Shown piece after piece: positions 5,115-13,135 of a DNA stretch of 64,000 nucleotides; positions within the stretch are counted from its first letter, which is position 1; each line of letters starts with the position of its first letter. This DNA is from a virus. The notes under the pieces were generated by a model. That model worked only from the letters and a program-made list of their open reading frames with translations, had not been told where the DNA came from and did not search any database. The stretch covers positions 18,520 through 82,519 of the IMG/VR virus record IMGVR_UViG_3300036851_000321; one strand, given 5' to 3'. Made by a program: the position numbers and the translations under genes.

Positions 5115-5345
5115 ATGTCTCTCTCGATGAACGCCCCCCTAACCCGACTCGACAGAAACGGCCACCACTCCCTAGCCGCGCCGCTGTCCCGCACTTCCCA
5201 GCTCTCCCGCCTTCTGCTCGAGGCCGCCATCGTCTTCGCGATCGTCGGGGCTGCTCTCGTGTACATCGGGTGGTTGGCCGAAGGGTTTGTGCCGGTGTGG
5301 GTGGAGCGGGAGAGCGGGGACGAGATGCGAACGGAGGAGCCGTGA
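5115..5345 (+). CDS. Small membrane protein
   Basis: Hydrophobic AAIVFAIVGAALVYIGWL; stop overlaps next start. Confidence 0.5.
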   Translation: MSLSMNAPLTRLDRNGHHSLAAPLSRTSQLSRLLLEAAIVFAIVGAALVYIGWLAEGFVPVWVERESGDEMRTEEP

Positions 5346-5569
5346 GCGACGAAGCCAGGATCCTGATTCTCGGCTTGGCGATCCCGATCTTCGCCTTTGC
5401 TGGGCTTTGGTCCGGCATGCGCCGCGGGAAAATCGATGCCTGGGACGCCACCACCACCGCGATCGAAAACGACAGGTGCGCCCTCCGCGGTCTCGTGCTC
5501 CTCCGTGGCCAAGCCGGCGAGTTCGTCTGCGTGCAGCCCGGGGCGGAGAAGTATCGGGGGAAGCGGTGA
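5342..5569 (+). CDS. Small membrane protein
   Basis: GGAGGAG RBS; ILILGLAIPIFAFAGLW TM segment. Confidence 0.55.
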   Translation: MSDEARILILGLAIPIFAFAGLWSGMRRGKIDAWDATTTAIENDRCALRGLVLLRGQAGEFVCVQPGAEKYRGKR

Positions 5570-5862
5570 GCCTCCCCGTCGTCCTGATTCCACACCCTCA
5601 CGTCCGAATGGACGCGAGCGTCATGAACGGGAGCCCGTACGTCGTCGGTTCGCGCGTTCCGGTGCGTCGGATCTACGGGTTCTTCAAGGGCGGATCCAGC
5701 TTGGAGCGCATCGTCAAACGTTACCCGCAGCTCGGTGCCGCCAAGGTGATCGACGCGCTCGCCTTCGCGCTCGACAACACGGACCTGTTGGAGGCGGACA
5801 TCGCTCGGGAGCAGGCCAATATCGACAGGGTGACAAGGGGCACGGAGGCGCCGAAGCCGTGA
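5566..5862 (+). CDS. DUF433-family protein (antitoxin-like HTH)
   Basis: VMNGSPYVVGSRVPVRRI...GSSLERIVKRYPQL...VIDALAF matches the DUF433 pattern. Confidence 0.85.
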   Translation: MSLPVVLIPHPHVRMDASVMNGSPYVVGSRVPVRRIYGFFKGGSSLERIVKRYPQLGAAKVIDALAFALDNTDLLEADIAREQANIDRVTRGTEAPKP

Positions 5863-6013
5863 TGCGCCCCACCCTCTTCACCATCCGCGCAATCCGCGCC
5901 TACTCCCGCCCGCCACGCATCTGGCTCACGTACGGGCTCGATGGCGCGGTCCGGCGGTTGCGGAGGGAGCAGAGGCGGAGCGACGAGCGGCGAACGGATT
6001 CAAGCGTTGGGAG

Positions 6014-6196
6014 GTGGTGTTGAAACTACCCGCCGACCTCACCTTCGCCGAGCTCCGGGAGATCGTCCGTGGCATCGTCCGTGAAGAGCGCGCAGCCGAG
6101 CGTAAGCTCCGGTCCGTGAAGGCACCGACGCGCAAGGCTTCGCCGAAGCGCGTCGCCCAGGTCCGCCGCTCACTTCGTCAGTTGGGGGTCGGATGA
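6014..6196 (+). CDS. Small basic protein upstream of int (possible directionality factor)
   Basis: 60 aa, Arg/Lys-rich, ATGA-coupled to integrase. Confidence 0.45.
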   Translation: MVLKLPADLTFAELREIVRGIVREERAAERKLRSVKAPTRKASPKRVAQVRRSLRQLGVG

Positions 6197-7470
6197 GGCG
6201 CCAGGCCGCCACCGTCGAAGAGCACCCGAGGGGATCGGGGCGGTTCCGCGTGCGAGCTCGCGTGAAGGGCAAGCGCCCGGTCATCGCGAGGGGCCTCGGT
6301 GAAGCAGAGGCGCACGAGATCGCTGATGCCTATCACGTGGTCCGCCACGAAACCGACCAGCAGGACCGGCTCACCCTGGCGGAGTTCGGTGAGAGCTTCC
6401 TGAAGCGCCGCGAACGATCCGGCGTCCGCGCTATCCGGACGGATCGGTCTCGCTGGAGCAAGCACATCGCGAAGGCACAGATTGGTGAACTCCCGGTGGC
6501 TCAGCTCCACAGCCGCGATGTTTGGGGGTGGCTCGACGGCCTGACGGACCTCGCGTACCGCACCCAGCTCCGCCTCCTGAACCTGCTCCGGGTGGCCCTC
6601 CAAGAAGCCGTCCGCCGGCGCGTGGCCGAGACCAACCCGGCCCGAGACGTGGAAATCCACAAGGCGGCTGCCGCTCGAGCGACGGACGACCTGGAGGGCA
6701 TCCTGAACCCCGCCGAGCAACAAGCTCTAGTTGCCGCCGTACCCGTCCGGGAGCGACCCACCGTCGTCTTTGCTCTCTGCACCGGCCTCCGTCAGGCCGA
6801 GCAGTGGTGGCTCAAGTGGGAGGACGTGAAGCCCGACCGGGTGGTCGTCTCCCGCTCCGCCGATGGCCTGCCGACGAAGAGCGGGAAGCCTCGCCCGGTG
6901 CCCCTGCTGCCTCCAGCGCTCGCCGCCCTGGAGGCCCTCCCGCGGCGCTCCCCGTGGGTCTTCCCTGCCCTTCGCGGGTCACGCCGAGCGAACGGCAAGC
7001 CGCCTCGCGGCTGGGCGAAGTGGGTCAAGGCGGCCGGTATCAAGCGCCCGATCCGCTGGCACGATCTCCGGCACACCTGCGCGACCTCGCTCCTAGCGGG
7101 TTGGTGGGGACGGAAGTGGTCGCTCGACGAAGTTTGCTCGCTGCTCGGACACTCGTCGGTGCAGGTGACGGAGCGGTACGCGCGGAAGCTAGACAGCACG
7201 CTGGAGGCCGCAGTCATTGGGACCACTGGTCCCACGGTCCCGACGCTGAAAGCGTCTAACCACTTGAGCCGACTGTCGGATTTGAACCGACGACCTGTGC
7301 TTTACGAAAGCGCTGGAGAGGGGAAGGAAAACGCGAGGGTAGGTAAGCCGGTGGTCACACCCAGTGACCTCCATGACGACGCCGACTACTCCTTCGAGTG
7401 GGCCGCCACCCTAGCCGAACACCAAGAGCGGGCTGAGGCCTTCGCCGCCATCGGGGGAGGGTCGAGGTGA
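6193..7470 (+). CDS. int: Tyrosine integrase
   Basis: TGLRQAE (R), TKSGK (K), HDLRH, LLGH, TERYA (Y) catalytic motifs. Confidence 0.95.
   Translation: MRRQAATVEEHPRGSGRFRVRARVKGKRPVIARGLGEAEAHEIADAYHVVRHETDQQDRLTLAEFGESFLKRRERSGVRAIRTDRSRWSKHIAKAQIGELPVAQLHSRDVWGWLDGLTDLAYRTQLRLLNLLRVALQEAVRRRVAETNPARDVEIHKAAAARATDDLEGILNPAEQQALVAAVPVRERPTVVFALCTGLRQAEQWWLKWEDVKPDRVVVSRSADGLPTKSGKPRPVPLLPPALAALEALPRRSPWVFPALRGSRRANGKPPRGWAKWVKAAGIKRPIRWHDLRHTCATSLLAGWWGRKWSLDEVCSLLGHSSVQVTERYARKLDSTLEAAVIGTTGPTVPTLKASNHLSRLSDLNRRPVLYESAGEGKENARVGKPVVTPSDLHDDADYSFEWAATLAEHQERAEAFAAIGGGSR
7264..7313 (-). other. attP core: 3' half of tRNA-Thr(CGT), inside the int coding sequence
   Basis: Minus strand reads anticodon loop TTCGTAA, variable loop AGGTC, T-arm GTCGG-TTCAAAT-CCGAC, acceptor strand AGTCGGC-T; no D-arm or 5' half. 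Confidence 0.85.
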
Positions 7471-8210
7471 GCCAACTGGTCCTCTCCCTGTTCCCCGGCG
7501 CCGACCTGCTCGGGATGGCCTTTGAGCTCGAGGGCTTCTGCGTGGTCCAAGGTCCCGACGTTCAGTTCGGGCGGGACGTAAAGGACTTTCATCCGCCGGC
7601 GGGAAGGTTCGACGGGGTGATCGGGGGGCCGCCCTGCCAGGCGTTCTCGCAGCTTCGGACCCAGCACCCAGGGCGCGCGCCGGCGTGGAACGGGATCCCC
7701 GAGTTCGAGCGTGTCGTCGCGGAGGCGCGCCCGGACTGGTTCGTCATGGAGAACGTCCGACAGGCGCCGCTACCAGTGGTCACCGGCTACGCGACGACCG
7801 CCGCACTCTTTCAGAATCGCTGGCTCGGTGAGGAGCAGAGCCGTCTCAGACGCTTCACGCTCGGAGCTCGCGGCGCCAGTACCCCCCCCTCGCTCTACTC
7901 GGCACTGACGCACGACTTCGTCGTCTTCGAGAACGTCGACAAGGCCGGGTGCTTCACGGCGAACGGTTCACAGTGGGAGCCCGGCATCGACAACGGCAAC
8001 CGAAAGGGTCGCTCCCGCTCCGTCCGTACCGACGCCGAATTCCGCCGCGGGTGCCGGCTCCAGGGCTTGCCCGAGACGTTCCTGGAAGACGCACCGTTCA
8101 CCGTCGAAGGCAAGATCCGCCTCGTCGGCAACGCTGTGCCTTTGCCCATGGGTCGGGCCGTTGCCCGGGCGGTGAAGCGGTGTCTTGGCCTGGAAACGGA
8201 GGCCGCATGA
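7467..8210 (+). CDS. DNA cytosine-C5 methyltransferase
   Basis: SLFPGA (variant motif I), GGPPCQAFS, ENV, QSRLR, GNAV. Confidence 0.9.
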   Translation: MSQLVLSLFPGADLLGMAFELEGFCVVQGPDVQFGRDVKDFHPPAGRFDGVIGGPPCQAFSQLRTQHPGRAPAWNGIPEFERVVAEARPDWFVMENVRQAPLPVVTGYATTAALFQNRWLGEEQSRLRRFTLGARGASTPPSLYSALTHDFVVFENVDKAGCFTANGSQWEPGIDNGNRKGRSRSVRTDAEFRRGCRLQGLPETFLEDAPFTVEGKIRLVGNAVPLPMGRAVARAVKRCLGLETEAA

Positions 8211-8725
8211 CGCAGCACGCGCTCTTTCTCGACCCGTCGGAGCCGTCGTGCGCGCTCTCTGCGTGCGGACGTTACCGCTACACGCTGCGCATTCCGCTCA
8301 CCGCCGATCGTCGCGGGGTCTGCCTGTTCGTGATGGCCAATCCGAGCACCGCGATCGTCACGGACGGCGTCTTTGCGTCCGACCCGACCGTCACGCGCTG
8401 CATGAACTTCGCGCGACGCTGGGGCTGCGGGACGCTCATCGTGGAGAACGTGCGGGCGTGGCGGGAAACGGACCCGGACAAGGTGCCGCCTGACCCGTTG
8501 GCAATCGGACCGGAGAACGACGCGCGGATCCGGCGCTCTGCCAAGGAGGCCGACATCGTGGTTTGCGGTTGGGGAAAGCTCGGTGGTGAGCGAGGCCGCG
8601 CAGTCCTCCGAATGCTCGCCGAAGTGTGCGCGCCGACGGCGCTGAAGCTCAACGGCGATGGGAGCCCTGCGCACCCGCTCTACCTCGCGGCTGACCTCAA
8701 GCCGTTCCCGATGGGGGCCGCATGA
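8207..8725 (+). CDS. DUF1643-family protein
   Basis: CGRYRYTL, MANPSTA, DPTVTRC, VVCGWG, HPLY; start at ATGA overlap. Confidence 0.85.
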   Translation: MTQHALFLDPSEPSCALSACGRYRYTLRIPLTADRRGVCLFVMANPSTAIVTDGVFASDPTVTRCMNFARRWGCGTLIVENVRAWRETDPDKVPPDPLAIGPENDARIRRSAKEADIVVCGWGKLGGERGRAVLRMLAEVCAPTALKLNGDGSPAHPLYLAADLKPFPMGAA

Positions 8726-8973
8726 GCGCCAAGGTCATCCCGATTTCGGACCGCGTCGCCCGCCTCCTTTCCCCACCCACCGGTGGCGTCCGCTTCGAAG
8801 CCGTCGTGGGCGGCGGCATCTGCTTCACCTGGCGGAACGATGACGGGGAGGTCGACCTCTACTTCGGGATCGATGAGGCGGCGGGGCTTGCGCGGCAGCT
8901 TGCCGACGCAATCGACCTCGCGGCGGAGTTGGTGAGGGCGGAGCGGGAGGAGAGGGGCGGGTGTGAGACGTGA
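8722..8973 (+). CDS. Hypothetical protein whose 3' end is duplicated downstream of tnpB
   Basis: Coupled on both sides; ends DLAAELVRAEREERGGCET. Confidence 0.75.
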   Translation: MSAKVIPISDRVARLLSPPTGGVRFEAVVGGGICFTWRNDDGEVDLYFGIDEAAGLARQLADAIDLAAELVRAEREERGGCET

Positions 8974-10148
8974 CCAGGAGCCAGTCCCTGTGCCGCGCCA
9001 TGCGATTCCGCGTCTACCCGACGGTGCATCAGGAGCGCCGACTTTTGGCATGGGAGTCGGCGCTGCGCTTCGTCTGGAATCTGGCGAACGAACAAAGGCT
9101 GATGGGCCTCGCTGGGCCATGGGGCGAGCGCGTCTTTCCGTCTGAGTTCTCTCAATCGCGCGAGGCGACCGAACTCCGCGCTGTGCTGCCATGGCTTTCG
9201 GACCTTCCGCGCGAGTCGATAACGTTTGTTCTGCGCCGGCTCCACGACGCCTGGCGTCGCTGTTTCTCACGCGTCAGCAAGCGCCCAGGCTTCAAGGTGA
9301 AGAGGCGCGACGTTGTGAGCATCGGGCTCAACCACCGGTACTGCCGCATTGAAGGCCAGACGGTGAAGCTGCCGAAGCTCGGCCCGTTGCGCATCGTCGC
9401 CCACCGCCCGCTGGTTGGGAAGTCGCGCGCGGTCTCTCTCGTTCGCGAAGGCGACCAGTGGTTCGCGGTGTTCGTTCGTGAGATAGAGGCGCCGAAGCCC
9501 GCTCGCCTCCCCGGCGCTGTCGCCCTCGACCGCGGCATCGTCTCCCTGGTCACCGACTCCGACAGCAAGACGATCGAAGGCCCCCGCTTCGCCGAGCGCT
9601 CCGCTCGCAAGCTGAAGCGGGCACAGCGCGCTCTCGCGCGCACCAAGAAAGGTTCTAGCAACCGAGCGAAGGCTCGGGAGCGACTGGCGCTGGTCCACCG
9701 AACGGTGAGGCGCCAGCGGGCATGGCTCCAGCATCAGATCAGTCACGACTACGCCAATAGCCACGGCACGGTCGTCATTGAGAAGCTGGAGACCGCCCGG
9801 ATGACCCGAAGCGCCAAGGGTTCCGTCGATGCACCCGGACGGAACGTCAAGGCGAAGGCCGGCTTGAACCGAAGCATTCTCGACGCCGGATGGTCCGGCC
9901 TTGCGGAAAAGCTCCGGTACAAGCTGGAAGAGCGAGGTGGCGAGCTCGTCGAAGTTCCGGCCGCCTACAGCTCGCAAACGTGCTCCGCGTGTGGCGTCGT
10001 TGACGCTGCCTCGCGCCGCACACAATCCGCGTTCTGCTGTGTTGCTTGCGGGCACCAGGAGAACGCGGACACGAACGCTGCGCGGGTGATTCTCAGCCGG
10101 TGGAACCCACCGGTTCAGCCTGTGGAGGCATGCGATGGCGCGGCCTGA
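8970..10148 (+). CDS. tnpB: TnpB RNA-guided endonuclease (IS200/IS605 family), no tnpA in window
   Basis: N-terminal RFRVYPT...LRFVWNLA; RuvC ALDRG / VIEKL / NADTNAA; CSACG...CVACG Zn finger; KAGLNRSILDAGW. Confidence 0.95.
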   Translation: MTRSQSLCRAMRFRVYPTVHQERRLLAWESALRFVWNLANEQRLMGLAGPWGERVFPSEFSQSREATELRAVLPWLSDLPRESITFVLRRLHDAWRRCFSRVSKRPGFKVKRRDVVSIGLNHRYCRIEGQTVKLPKLGPLRIVAHRPLVGKSRAVSLVREGDQWFAVFVREIEAPKPARLPGAVALDRGIVSLVTDSDSKTIEGPRFAERSARKLKRAQRALARTKKGSSNRAKARERLALVHRTVRRQRAWLQHQISHDYANSHGTVVIEKLETARMTRSAKGSVDAPGRNVKAKAGLNRSILDAGWSGLAEKLRYKLEERGGELVEVPAAYSSQTCSACGVVDAASRRTQSAFCCVACGHQENADTNAARVILSRWNPPVQPVEACDGAA

Positions 10149-10199
10149 GAAGCAGGAAGCGGAGCGATCTGCGGGTTACGACCTGGCAACGGAGCTCTT
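10090..10199 (+). ncRNA. Predicted TnpB omega-RNA (scaffold to about 10179, guide from about 10180)
   Basis: CCGGTGG-AAC-CCACCGG hairpin (10097-10113), GCCTGTGGAG...GAAGCAGGAA, GCGGA-GCGA-TCTGC hairpin, end GGTTAC; 5' boundary uncertain. Confidence 0.65.
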
Positions 10200-10233
10200 A
10201 AAGGCCGAGCGCGAGGGGGGCGAAGGGAAATGA
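10180..10233 (+). pseudogene. Orphaned copy of the 3' end of gene 8722-8973 (DLATELLKAEREGGEGK*)
   Basis: 9 of 12 codons give the same amino acid as 8914-8949; its TGA overlaps the ATG at 10230. Confidence 0.75.
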
Positions 10234-10658
10234 GCGACCTTGTCGTAACCGTTCCGAAGCCGATCTGGCTAGACTGGATCTACGAGGGCGATGCCGCGGG
10301 CGAGCCGGCCACCGGAGAGGAGTGGGGCTTCTTCCTCGGTGGAGCACGCCCCGCCGCGCTTCCAGGCGACCGACTTTACATCGTGGCTCACGGCCTGCTC
10401 CGTGGCTACGCACCGATCACGCGTATCGCACGCACGGAGCGCGGCTGGGCAATCTGCCGGAACCACGGCGCCCAAGCGGTAACGATTGCGGGCGAGATCC
10501 ACGGCTTCCGCGGGTGGCGAAAGCGCTGGTGGGACCGGGCGCAAGAGATCCCCTTCCCCGATTGGAAGATCGCGGGGGTGAAACCGCAATCGCGCGAGGA
10601 CCAGTACACGCTCGACCGGCTATTTCGAGAGGCCGTTTCGTTGCCGGGGGCGGAATAG
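10230..10658 (+). CDS. Hypothetical protein, possibly PUA/ASCH-like
   Basis: Trp-rich; PGDRLYIVAHGLLRGYA and GFRGWR; fold is inference. Confidence 0.55.
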   Translation: MSDLVVTVPKPIWLDWIYEGDAAGEPATGEEWGFFLGGARPAALPGDRLYIVAHGLLRGYAPITRIARTERGWAICRNHGAQAVTIAGEIHGFRGWRKRWWDRAQEIPFPDWKIAGVKPQSREDQYTLDRLFREAVSLPGAE

Positions 10659-12132: not shown

Positions 12133-12341
12133 GTGAGCTTCGTCGCAGCGTCGGCGCACTCGTGCTCTTCCACGGGGCGACGATCGAGCGCGCGCTCAGG
12201 TTCTCCGCTTCACAGATGGAGCTTGCCGAGCGCTCGGAGGCAACTGATCCGGAGCTCCGTGACGCAGCGGGGGAACAGCTAGCCAAGATCGACGCTGCAC
12301 TCGAGGCGTTCCTGGCGCTCGGGAAGGAGCTGCAGAAGTGA
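12129..12341 (+). CDS. Hypothetical helical protein
   Basis: GGAGG RBS; overlaps at both ends. Confidence 0.55.
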   Translation: MSELRRSVGALVLFHGATIERALRFSASQMELAERSEATDPELRDAAGEQLAKIDAALEAFLALGKELQK

Positions 12342-13135
12342 TGGCTGAGGGTAGCTTGCGGGCGGTGGTGGAGGGGGAGGCAACGTGGGCGATCGTGCAT
12401 GGGGATTGTCGCGAAGTGCTCGCCACGCTCCCGGATCGCTCCGTCGACCACGTGATTACGGATCCGCCGTACGACGAGCACACCCAGGCAAACATCTCGT
12501 CCGGTACCGCGTTCAAGCGGCAGCTCGACGGGTTCACGTCAGGCTCCGGGATCCCACGCGTCGACCTTGGGTTTGCCCCGCTTGAATCGTGCGACTTCGC
12601 CCGGGACCTCGTCCGCGTTTCTCGCCGCTGGACCATCTGCTTTTCCAGCATCGAGAACATCGGCGCCTACCGCGACGCCGTTGGCTCCGAGCACTGGGTG
12701 CGCGGTGGAGTTTGGTACAAGCCGAACTCGATGGGTCAGCTCACGGCGGACAGGCCGGCGAGCGCATGTGAGTTCCTGGCCATCATGCACGCCGCGGGTG
12801 AGAAGCGGTGGAACGGGAAGGGCTCATATGCGCACTGGGTGTTCAACGGGACCCGCGGAGAACTCGAGCGTCACCCCTGCCAAAAGCCGCTCGATCTGAT
12901 GCTGCGCCTCGTCGAGCAGTTCACCGATCCGGGTGACGTGATCCTGGACGCGTTTTGCGGGTCCGCCGCAACCGGGATCGCCGCGCTCAGGCTCGGGCGT
13001 CGGTTCATCGGCATCGAGTGTGATCCGCCATGGGTCGAGCTCGCGCGTGACAGGTTGATCGCGGAGACCGAGAACTCAACGGTTGCGGCACGAAGAGCAG
13101 GGCAGGTCGCGCTCTTCTCGGAGGTCCCCCAGTGA
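12338..13135 (+). CDS. DNA N6-adenine/N4-cytosine methyltransferase (beta class)
   Basis: HGDC, ITDPPY, HPCQKP, ILDAFCGSAAT, RRFIGIE. Confidence 0.9.
   Translation: MMAEGSLRAVVEGEATWAIVHGDCREVLATLPDRSVDHVITDPPYDEHTQANISSGTAFKRQLDGFTSGSGIPRVDLGFAPLESCDFARDLVRVSRRWTICFSSIENIGAYRDAVGSEHWVRGGVWYKPNSMGQLTADRPASACEFLAIMHAAGEKRWNGKGSYAHWVFNGTRGELERHPCQKPLDLMLRLVEQFTDPGDVILDAFCGSAATGIAALRLGRRFIGIECDPPWVELARDRLIAETENSTVAARRAGQVALFSEVPQ

Follow-up and report, generated by a model that had tools for sequence, protein, structure and literature searches.

Why should the end of one small phage gene be present twice, once on each side of a tnpB gene? This question was raised by a stretch of 64,000 nucleotides (hereafter, the window) comprising bases 18520-82519 of the linear 82.5 kb IMG/VR virus record IMGVR_UViG_3300036851_000321 (CheckV completeness estimate, 82%), in which the last codons of an 83-aa gene (gene 8722, plus strand, 8722..8973) recur past tnpB (plus strand, 8970..10148). 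An initial annotation had described a transposase-less TnpB cassette laid out as an RNA-guided homing element whose own target allele had been recoded. The duplication of the gene tail around tnpB was confirmed. Tentatively, and at somewhat less than an even chance, we favor the reading that a tnpB-only TnpB/omega-RNA module is lodged within the 3' end of a conserved small phage gene and acts as a homing cassette. We regard the architecture as solid and infer the activity from it.

When positions 8914-8949 were aligned with 10180-10215, 26 of 36 bases and 9 of 12 residues were found to be identical. The 10 mismatches were located at positions 6, 9, 10, 16, 18, 19, 21, 23, 27 and 33 of the repeat; six of them fell in five codons whose residue was unchanged and four in three codons whose residue was changed. 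Past the 36 nucleotides the two copies continued with an indel (EERGGCET upstream compared to GGEGK downstream, each followed by a stop codon), and both stopped on an overlapping start codon, GTGA for tnpB (GTG at 8970) and ATGA for the next gene, gene 10230. The upstream copy (plus strand, 8914..8973), DLAAELVRAEREERGGCET and a stop codon, is the expressed C-terminus and keeps gene 8722 whole. The downstream, displaced copy (plus strand, 10180..10233), DLATELLKAEREGGEGK and a stop codon, is in frame with gene 8722; position 10180 shares the absolute frame of that gene, and 8914-10179 measures 1266 nt (3 x 422). Excision of 8914-10179 would leave an in-frame gene of family length with its stop overlapping the next ATG. 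On the position and identity of the copies, the six mismatches in the first 20 nt, the six synonymous mismatches and the TGA that overlaps the ATG at 10230, the initial annotation agreed with the sequence.

The window has a G+C content of 65% and the repeated segment is short and of low complexity, which would favor a chance resemblance of two Ala/Glu/Leu/Arg-rich stretches in G+C-rich DNA. However, no other match of at least 24 of 36 bases to the downstream 36-mer was found on either strand of the window (128,000 positions), and the next-best match on the plus strand reached 22 of 36. When the 250 nt preceding tnpB were aligned locally with the 120 nt that follow 10179, the observed score was reached by 1 of 500 shuffles, and with wider flanks by 0 of 300. 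Moreover, the repeat starts exactly at the boundary of the RNA scaffold described below, runs in frame and ends in a stop-start overlap, and both copies fit the C-terminal motif of the gene family. Chance is effectively refuted as an explanation.

The real ends of this gene family were obtained from its homologues. A full HMMER scan of 1.84 billion representatives gave one small homologue of gene 8722 (P0124, 79 aa, 49% identity); 11 of the 13 HMMER matches, long proteins of 608-6651 aa with several matching stretches each, were dropped as compositional matches. A two-sequence profile then gave eight further homologues and a cluster listing one more, for a total of ten (76-88 aa). All ten end in LADA[IL][DE][LM]Ax[EG]F[LVA][KR]E followed by three to six residues, and the insertion point lies between the I and the D, inside the best conserved motif of the family. 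Both window tails fit the part of this motif that follows the insertion point, [DE][LM]Ax[EG]F[LVA][KR]E, indicating that the upstream copy is not junk from an element end. The residues ELxxAERE were common to the two window tails and absent from the other family members, and the tails were closest to each other. The displaced copy carries LK, as do 7 of the 10 members, compared to VR in the upstream copy, as in 1 of 10. As judged by this comparison, both copies are genuine tails of closely related alleles.

The boundary at which the displaced tail begins was placed with DNA from seven related loci on metagenome contigs (L008-L014). Independent right flanks were provided by the window, by L008/L009/L010 (one site in three contigs), by L014, by L012 and by the near-identical pair L011/L013 with differing right flanks. 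All five sites retain GAAGCAGGAAGCGG, a hairpin and G(G/T)TTAC. In the window, in L014 and at the L008/L009/L010 site, the hairpin has 5 bp and is followed by G(G/A)GGTTAC; the more distant L011, L012 and L013 have an extra hairpin and end in GTTTAC. Directly past TTAC, the sequences were unrelated at all five independent right flanks. TnpB guides are conventionally placed by such an abrupt loss of conservation at differing right flanks, and because conservation ends sharply at 10179, the guide template is predicted to begin at 10180, the first base of the displaced tail. The claim that the repeat starts exactly after the scaffold end GGTTAC was thus borne out by the related loci.

The 3' part of the omega-RNA-like scaffold (plus strand, 10030..10179) overlaps the 3' end of tnpB and ends in GGGTTAC. 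Its terminal 5-bp hairpin (plus strand, 10159..10172) lies 7 nt before the boundary and was conserved with different letters in the three close loci, the stem being kept with other letters in L009 and L014. In a consensus fold of three sequences only, 49 pairs were formed, five of them changed on both sides, and the final GGGTTAC was paired with a conserved upstream GTGATTC. The single-sequence fold of the scaffold gave z = -2.2, and no Rfam family matched the scaffold region. By comparison of related loci, the conserved RNA scaffold was shown to end at 10179, with the displaced tail as template of the predicted guide. The predicted guide template (plus strand, 10180..10199) comprises the first 16-20 nt past the right end, as placed by the conserved boundary, and the guide had no other match with three or fewer mismatches in the window. 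The upstream, functional tail departs from this template at six of the 20 positions, half of which lie among the first 10. The RNA of ISDra2 is described as carrying about 16 nt of the right flank, and cutting as needing a transposon-associated motif (TAM) 5' of the target (Karvelis 2021, PMC8612924).

At the same right end, an ATG in the conserved 3' end of tnpB opens a 32-aa open reading frame (ORF; MARPEKQEA..., 10135-10233) that continues across scaffold and displaced tail until its stop in the ATGA of gene 10230. A 239-aa ORF (5145-5864) starts from this ATG in L009 and extends into the neighboring gene. The right end may in this way offer a restart codon, or couple translation, to whatever follows it.

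How the two tails came to differ bears on whether the carrier's allele was recoded in place, as had been proposed. When 10 random substitutions were placed on either copy, at least 9 of 12 residues survived in 0.75% and 0.60% of 100,000 trials, respectively (P about 0.007). This bias to synonymous differences indicates that both tails diverged mostly under protein constraint, while they were coding. The mismatches amounted to 6 of the 20 guide-matched bases compared to 4 of the next 16. Such an even spread argues against guide escape, since one or two changes near the TAM would suffice for escape, and together with the indel past 36 nt it fits an imported diverged allele better than a selected recoding. 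Codon usage in the displaced tail was not clearly distinctive (A-ending codons, 4 of 17, P = 0.16; a single rare TTA). Most likely the copies are two alleles that diverged in different phages and were joined later, as their differences suggest; recoding in place is less likely, and the notion of a selected escape was not supported.

The nuclease itself appears to be complete. The tnpB product matched PF07282 (9.3e-21), PF01385 (3.8e-20) and PF12323 (2.7e-06), all above the cut-offs, and the domain architecture of TnpB is present: helix-turn-helix (HTH), OrfB_IS605 (RuvC) and zinc-ribbon TNB domain. The NCBIfam model guided_TnpB (NF040570) gave 238 bits compared to a cut-off of 100. The RuvC residues D187, E271 and D367, which we take to be equivalent to D191, E278 and D361 of ISDra2, were invariant among 12 aligned sequences (the window and 11 relatives of 65-85% identity), and in whole-length alignments with the solved TnpB chains 8h1j and 8bf8 (about 5e-23) they aligned to the DxG, E and D motifs. 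As judged by these domains and residues, tnpB encodes an intact TnpB, and the identity first assigned to it stands. A GTG or ATG followed by A opens tnpB in the window, in L009 (a 70% identical TnpB) and in the relatives P0002 and P0004, and the start at GTG 8970 (392 aa) is therefore probably right; a start from the ATG at 9000 would shorten the protein to 382 aa. Early in the tnpB coding sequence lies a perfect 10-bp inverted repeat with an 11-nt loop (9034-9064). A 7-bp repeat is found close by in L009, in codons that are not homologous to those of the window repeat.

No Y1 transposase (PF01797) was found in the 82.5 kb record, with the control genomes matched in the same search, and no serine recombinase (PF00239) was found in that record. 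The description of the cassette as transposase-less holds for the record at its estimated completeness. No inverted repeat that could form a left-end hairpin was found in 8800-9060, within 170 nt upstream of tnpB; in the window, a small hairpin was present at the right end only. The tail copies were also considered as left-end and right-end hairpins and rejected as such, being coding sequence devoid of inverted repeats. In 4 of 8 sampled GenBank phage TnpB loci (L016, L019 and L022/L023), the left and right ends carry matching hairpins. These four loci belong to phages phiKX1, P1312, Crumble and Cabrinians, and their near-identical hairpins are canonical IS200/IS605 ends. Hairpins of this kind explain the flank similarity in L016, L019 and L022/L023, and automated searches for flank duplications around TnpB must therefore mask them. 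A coding-tail duplication like that of the window was found in none of the 11 other loci tested.

These ends can be drawn in two ways. If the element is a cassette, it would span 8914-10179. If it is a transposon, it would span 8970-10179, with one AC on the left flank and another at the scaffold end; the two tails would then stand directly in tandem in the empty site, and only their junction would carry the TAM and the target. Both views are compatible, in that a transposon may have been born by transposition and a larger block moved later by recombination. The window and L009 have nothing but AC in common ahead of the start codon, and AC was found at both junctions in each of them, the left flanks having been compared for these two close loci only.

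In its strict form, the transposon explanation holds that 8970-10179 is the transposon proper, inserted between tandem tail copies that pre-existed or arose by aberrant transposition or duplication, and that TnpB only guards the donor joint (copy 1 and copy 2) after excision, which is its standard retention role. The left homology of the window and L009 starting only at AC and the start codon agrees with it, as does the AC that ends both the left flank and the scaffold in the manner of IS607 elements, described as having no palindromic ends and no target duplication (PMC10690162). However, two coincidences would be needed, a tandem duplication that is both diverged and out of frame (copy 1, 56 nt) and an insertion exactly at its junction. 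The synonymous bias is hard to square with a non-coding second copy in the same genome, two shared nucleotides are weak evidence, and NCBIfam favors an IS200/IS605-type TnpB (190 bits) over an IS607-type (110 bits; IS607_TnpB cut-off, 350). We consider this explanation improbable.

If the locus is a homing cassette, the TnpB ribonucleoprotein would be aimed at uninterrupted alleles with a displaced-type tail, and the carrier's functional tail would be spared by guide mismatches at positions 6, 9, 10, 16, 18 and 19. During co-infection, or when the phage recombines with a resident prophage, the cut allele would be repaired from the carrier, and the repair would copy in the block of spare tail, tnpB and scaffold; alternatively, the rival genome would simply be lost. 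The gene body would serve as left homology arm, and the displaced tail with gene 10230 as right arm. After copying, the displaced tail would template the guide again. The spare tail most likely came by recombination from the diverged allele of another phage, as in the endonuclease ORFs of fungal mitochondria.

The homing interpretation of the initial annotation is partly supported, by the intact TnpB, the guide drawn from the displaced tail, the natural character of both tails, the 6 of 20 guide positions at which the carrier allele differs from the predicted target at the recognition site, and the lack of a transposase and of a left hairpin; the part that had explained the divergence as selected escape was not supported. 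The same anatomy would serve a weapon of competition that does not home, in which the guide destroys co-infecting relatives with the displaced-type allele and the cassette passes on by vertical inheritance alone. Phage homing endonucleases are described as killing competitors in a review (PMC13565253). The present data do not separate such a weapon from homing, but both homology arms for copying are present, and we consider a purely vertical weapon quite improbable.

The relatives of tnpB bear on the mobility of its lineage. TnpBs 83-86% identical to that of the window exist (P0002, P0003 and P0004). For P0002 and for the gene-8722 homologue P0140 (43% identical), three contigs each are listed, with a longest contig of 70,033 nt; P0003 and the gene-8722 homologue P0136 (44% identical) likewise agree in a longest contig of 71,136 nt. 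From these matching longest contigs, related phages seem to carry both TnpB and a gene-8722 homologue. The far higher conservation of tnpB than of the neighboring gene 8722 hints at a recent spread of tnpB, and a small, fast-evolving neighbor could also explain the gap. In P0003 and P0004 the stop codon was lost, and the proteins read through the scaffold into tails that differ from the window flank. In the close relatives P0003, P0004, P0005 and P0010, the usual stop is missing or the 3' end is shifted in frame, and the predicted proteins read through the scaffold into the flank. Read-through tails of this kind make the guide region visible at the protein level when the DNA is not at hand. 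Back-reading of the P0003 tail gave no gene-8722-like tail in any frame, this being hand work and not conclusive. With L009 and L014 included, five different guides were found among TnpBs of at least 70% identity, indicating that the lineage changes sites, as an insertion sequence does.

The loci L008, L009 and L010 have the same TnpB element with identical right flanks on three metagenome contigs from different JGI data sets. L008 and L009 also share identical left flanks, and the L009 element lies in a phage-like region beside an AAA ATPase-like gene. In GenBank, TnpB relatives, all below 60% identity, were found by tblastn in 544 of 50,697 phage records, 182 of which were Salinibacter phages.

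Alleles without tnpB were looked for in several collections, none of the ten gene-8722 homologues being close enough to stand for one. The gene 8722 protein had no match among the viral contigs, and a word-index protein search returned only the protein itself. A degenerate DNA pattern for the 12-residue repeat gave 0 matches in the viral contigs, and the two-sequence gene-8722 profile gave none there. Six whole viral records with relatives of gene 10230 or TnpB had no match to the family profile, and tblastn of gene 8722 against all loci gave only matches with E of at least 0.35. Homologues of gene 10230 with 48-67% identity were present in five viral loci, each with a different, unrelated upstream gene, and these loci are therefore uninformative on the junction. 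Among public sequencing runs, the stretch was found in a single one, a soil metagenome that is its probable source. The contigs of this run had no joint across the cassette and only short pieces of approximately 80% identity that were taken as unrelated; because contigs drop rare variants, this does not argue for the absence of such a joint. Searches for more TnpBs of the clade gave one locus at 28% identity in the viral contigs, none there by profile, and none in the genome contigs. The single match to a tnpB DNA pattern was rejected as a chance match in an unrelated gene, as were two matches to a scaffold pattern in viral contigs, which lie in terminase-like and tape-measure-like genes by reading of their sequence.

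Several of these observations weigh against homing. The layout was read from the DNA of a single genome, and neither a tnpB-free allele nor a close relative of the gene tail was found in any collection searched. The right flank of the window is not shared by TnpB relatives of 70-86% identity (L009, L014, P0003 and P0004). The loci L009 and L012 have no flank duplication, their alignment scores being reached by 417 and 54 of 500 shuffles, respectively. The mismatches between the tail copies are not concentrated in the guide-matched part. The CAATC that would lie 5' of an uninterrupted target is a candidate TAM. Finally, AC precedes the start codon in the window and L009 and also ends the scaffold, and IS607-like ends would make 8970-10179 the transposon proper.

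Part of this evidence also fits an inert scar. An ordinary TnpB insertion sequence would have entered the gene tail, and later illegitimate or homeologous recombination with a related phage would have restored the gene and removed the left end; the duplication would be a by-product, and the module would no longer cut anything relevant or spread between phages. The missing left end, the absence of a transposase from the record, a divergence pattern that fits two alleles joined by recombination, close TnpBs at other sites and the failure to find an empty allele in the collections searched all agree with such a history. In contrast, all catalytic residues are kept and the scaffold is conserved to its last base, which points to selection still acting on the ribonucleoprotein, and the displaced tail has stayed intact and in frame. 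We consider a scar of this kind rather unlikely.

Returning to the homing cassette, our analysis suggests a wider reading, which we hold to be conceivable but doubtful. The locus may be a natural RNA-guided 'cut and rescue' cassette, in which spare tail, tnpB and scaffold move between related phages by break-induced recombination and the displaced tail of the recipient becomes the new guide, so that conserved and possibly needed genes would be invaded without inactivation and the nuclease re-aimed at the allele just replaced.

Upstream of the cassette lie an integrase-like ORF (6193-7470), whose identity comes from reading of the translation alone, a C-5 cytosine methylase (7467-8210) and, between the latter and gene 8722, a DUF1643 protein. 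Downstream lies gene 10230 (plus strand, 10230..10658; 142 aa), the start and ribosome-binding region of which are in or after the displaced tail, followed by a DUF4326 protein. No PHROGs or Pfam family was found for the genes flanking tnpB in the window, gene 8722 and gene 10230, or in L009. A 265-aa ORF (12338-13135) with a DPPY motif resembles an N6/N4 DNA methyltransferase and would be a second methylase-like gene near the integrase.

Two roles of TnpB are established: it restores its transposon once this has been excised, and it propels insertion sequences through populations of plasmids. The window module resembles IS200/IS605 TnpB/omega-RNA systems such as ISDra2 (PMC8612924) in belonging to the same family, with intact RuvC residues and a scaffold that overlaps the 3' end of tnpB; the guide comes from the DNA just past the right end, and the expected target is the uninterrupted site. 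Unlike these systems, the window record has neither TnpA nor a left-end hairpin, the tnpB start overlaps the stop of the host gene, and a second copy of the displaced segment makes the interrupted gene whole. Homing and retention by IS200/IS605 TnpB have been described (Meers 2023, bioRxiv 10.1101/2023.03.14.532601). In the TnpB gene drive of IS200/IS605 elements in multicopy plasmids (Mears et al. 2025, preprint, PMC11870625), the guide likewise records the insertion site, IS-free copies of the replicon are cut and the carrier wins. That drive, as described there, concerns plasmids and complete insertion sequences and has no rescue copy of the interrupted gene; it demonstrates TnpB-driven spread without a transposase for plasmids, which a 2026 review discusses as a possibility for phages (PMC13565253). 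The IS607 TnpB elements, as described for CboIStron (PMC10690162), also have no palindromic ends, and the last two bases of their scaffold are the last two bases of the TAM, comparable to the AC before the start codon and at the scaffold end in the window. They differ in that the window TnpB scores lower on the IS607 model than on the IS200/IS605 one and that the window has neither a serine recombinase nor an intron.

Free-standing phage homing endonucleases such as SegF and MobE, which act by intronless homing (PMC13565253), are likewise encoded by genes that sit tightly between conserved phage genes; their self and target alleles are distinguished through substitutions in a conserved gene close by, and flanking markers are co-converted. 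These enzymes, as that review describes them, recognize DNA by protein contacts and have no templated copy of the target beside their gene. The closest precedent is found in the mobile ORFs (mORFs) of fungal mitochondria, which carry a foreign C-terminal copy (PMC3630166). Examples are Allomyces atp6 and Glomus atp6, atp9, cox2 and nad3, and in Allomyces the endonuclease was reported to be responsible for mobility. Their order is the same as in the window: core gene, inserted C-terminal segment, endonuclease gene and displaced native C-terminal segment. The copies are diverged as DNA and similar as protein, with 63.5% nt and 91% aa identity in Glomus atp6 compared to 72% and 75% over the 12 codons of the window, and the inserted copy is thought to stem from another lineage (PMC3630166). 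In contrast, the LAGLIDADG or GIY-YIG protein of the mORFs reads DNA itself, whereas the nuclease in the window would be RNA-guided, with the displaced tail doubling as guide template; moreover, the host is an organelle in the one case and a phage in the other.

No report of a natural TnpB module carrying a replacement for the gene segment that it displaced was found in a literature search. In synthetic cleave-and-rescue and home-and-rescue drives, engineered with Cas9 in insects, a nuclease directed against the wild-type allele is linked to a diverged rescue copy that the guide does not match. The window shares with them the diverged replacement that is unmatched by the guide; the difference is that its arrangement is natural and that gene 8722 is only possibly needed. 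If the homing reading is true, the locus would show how a transposase-less TnpB persists and spreads in phages, would be an RNA-guided counterpart of the fungal mORF elements and would give rescue-type gene drives a precedent in nature. It would also open the question to a direct test, since a single locus displays the guide, its predicted target and the immune allele.

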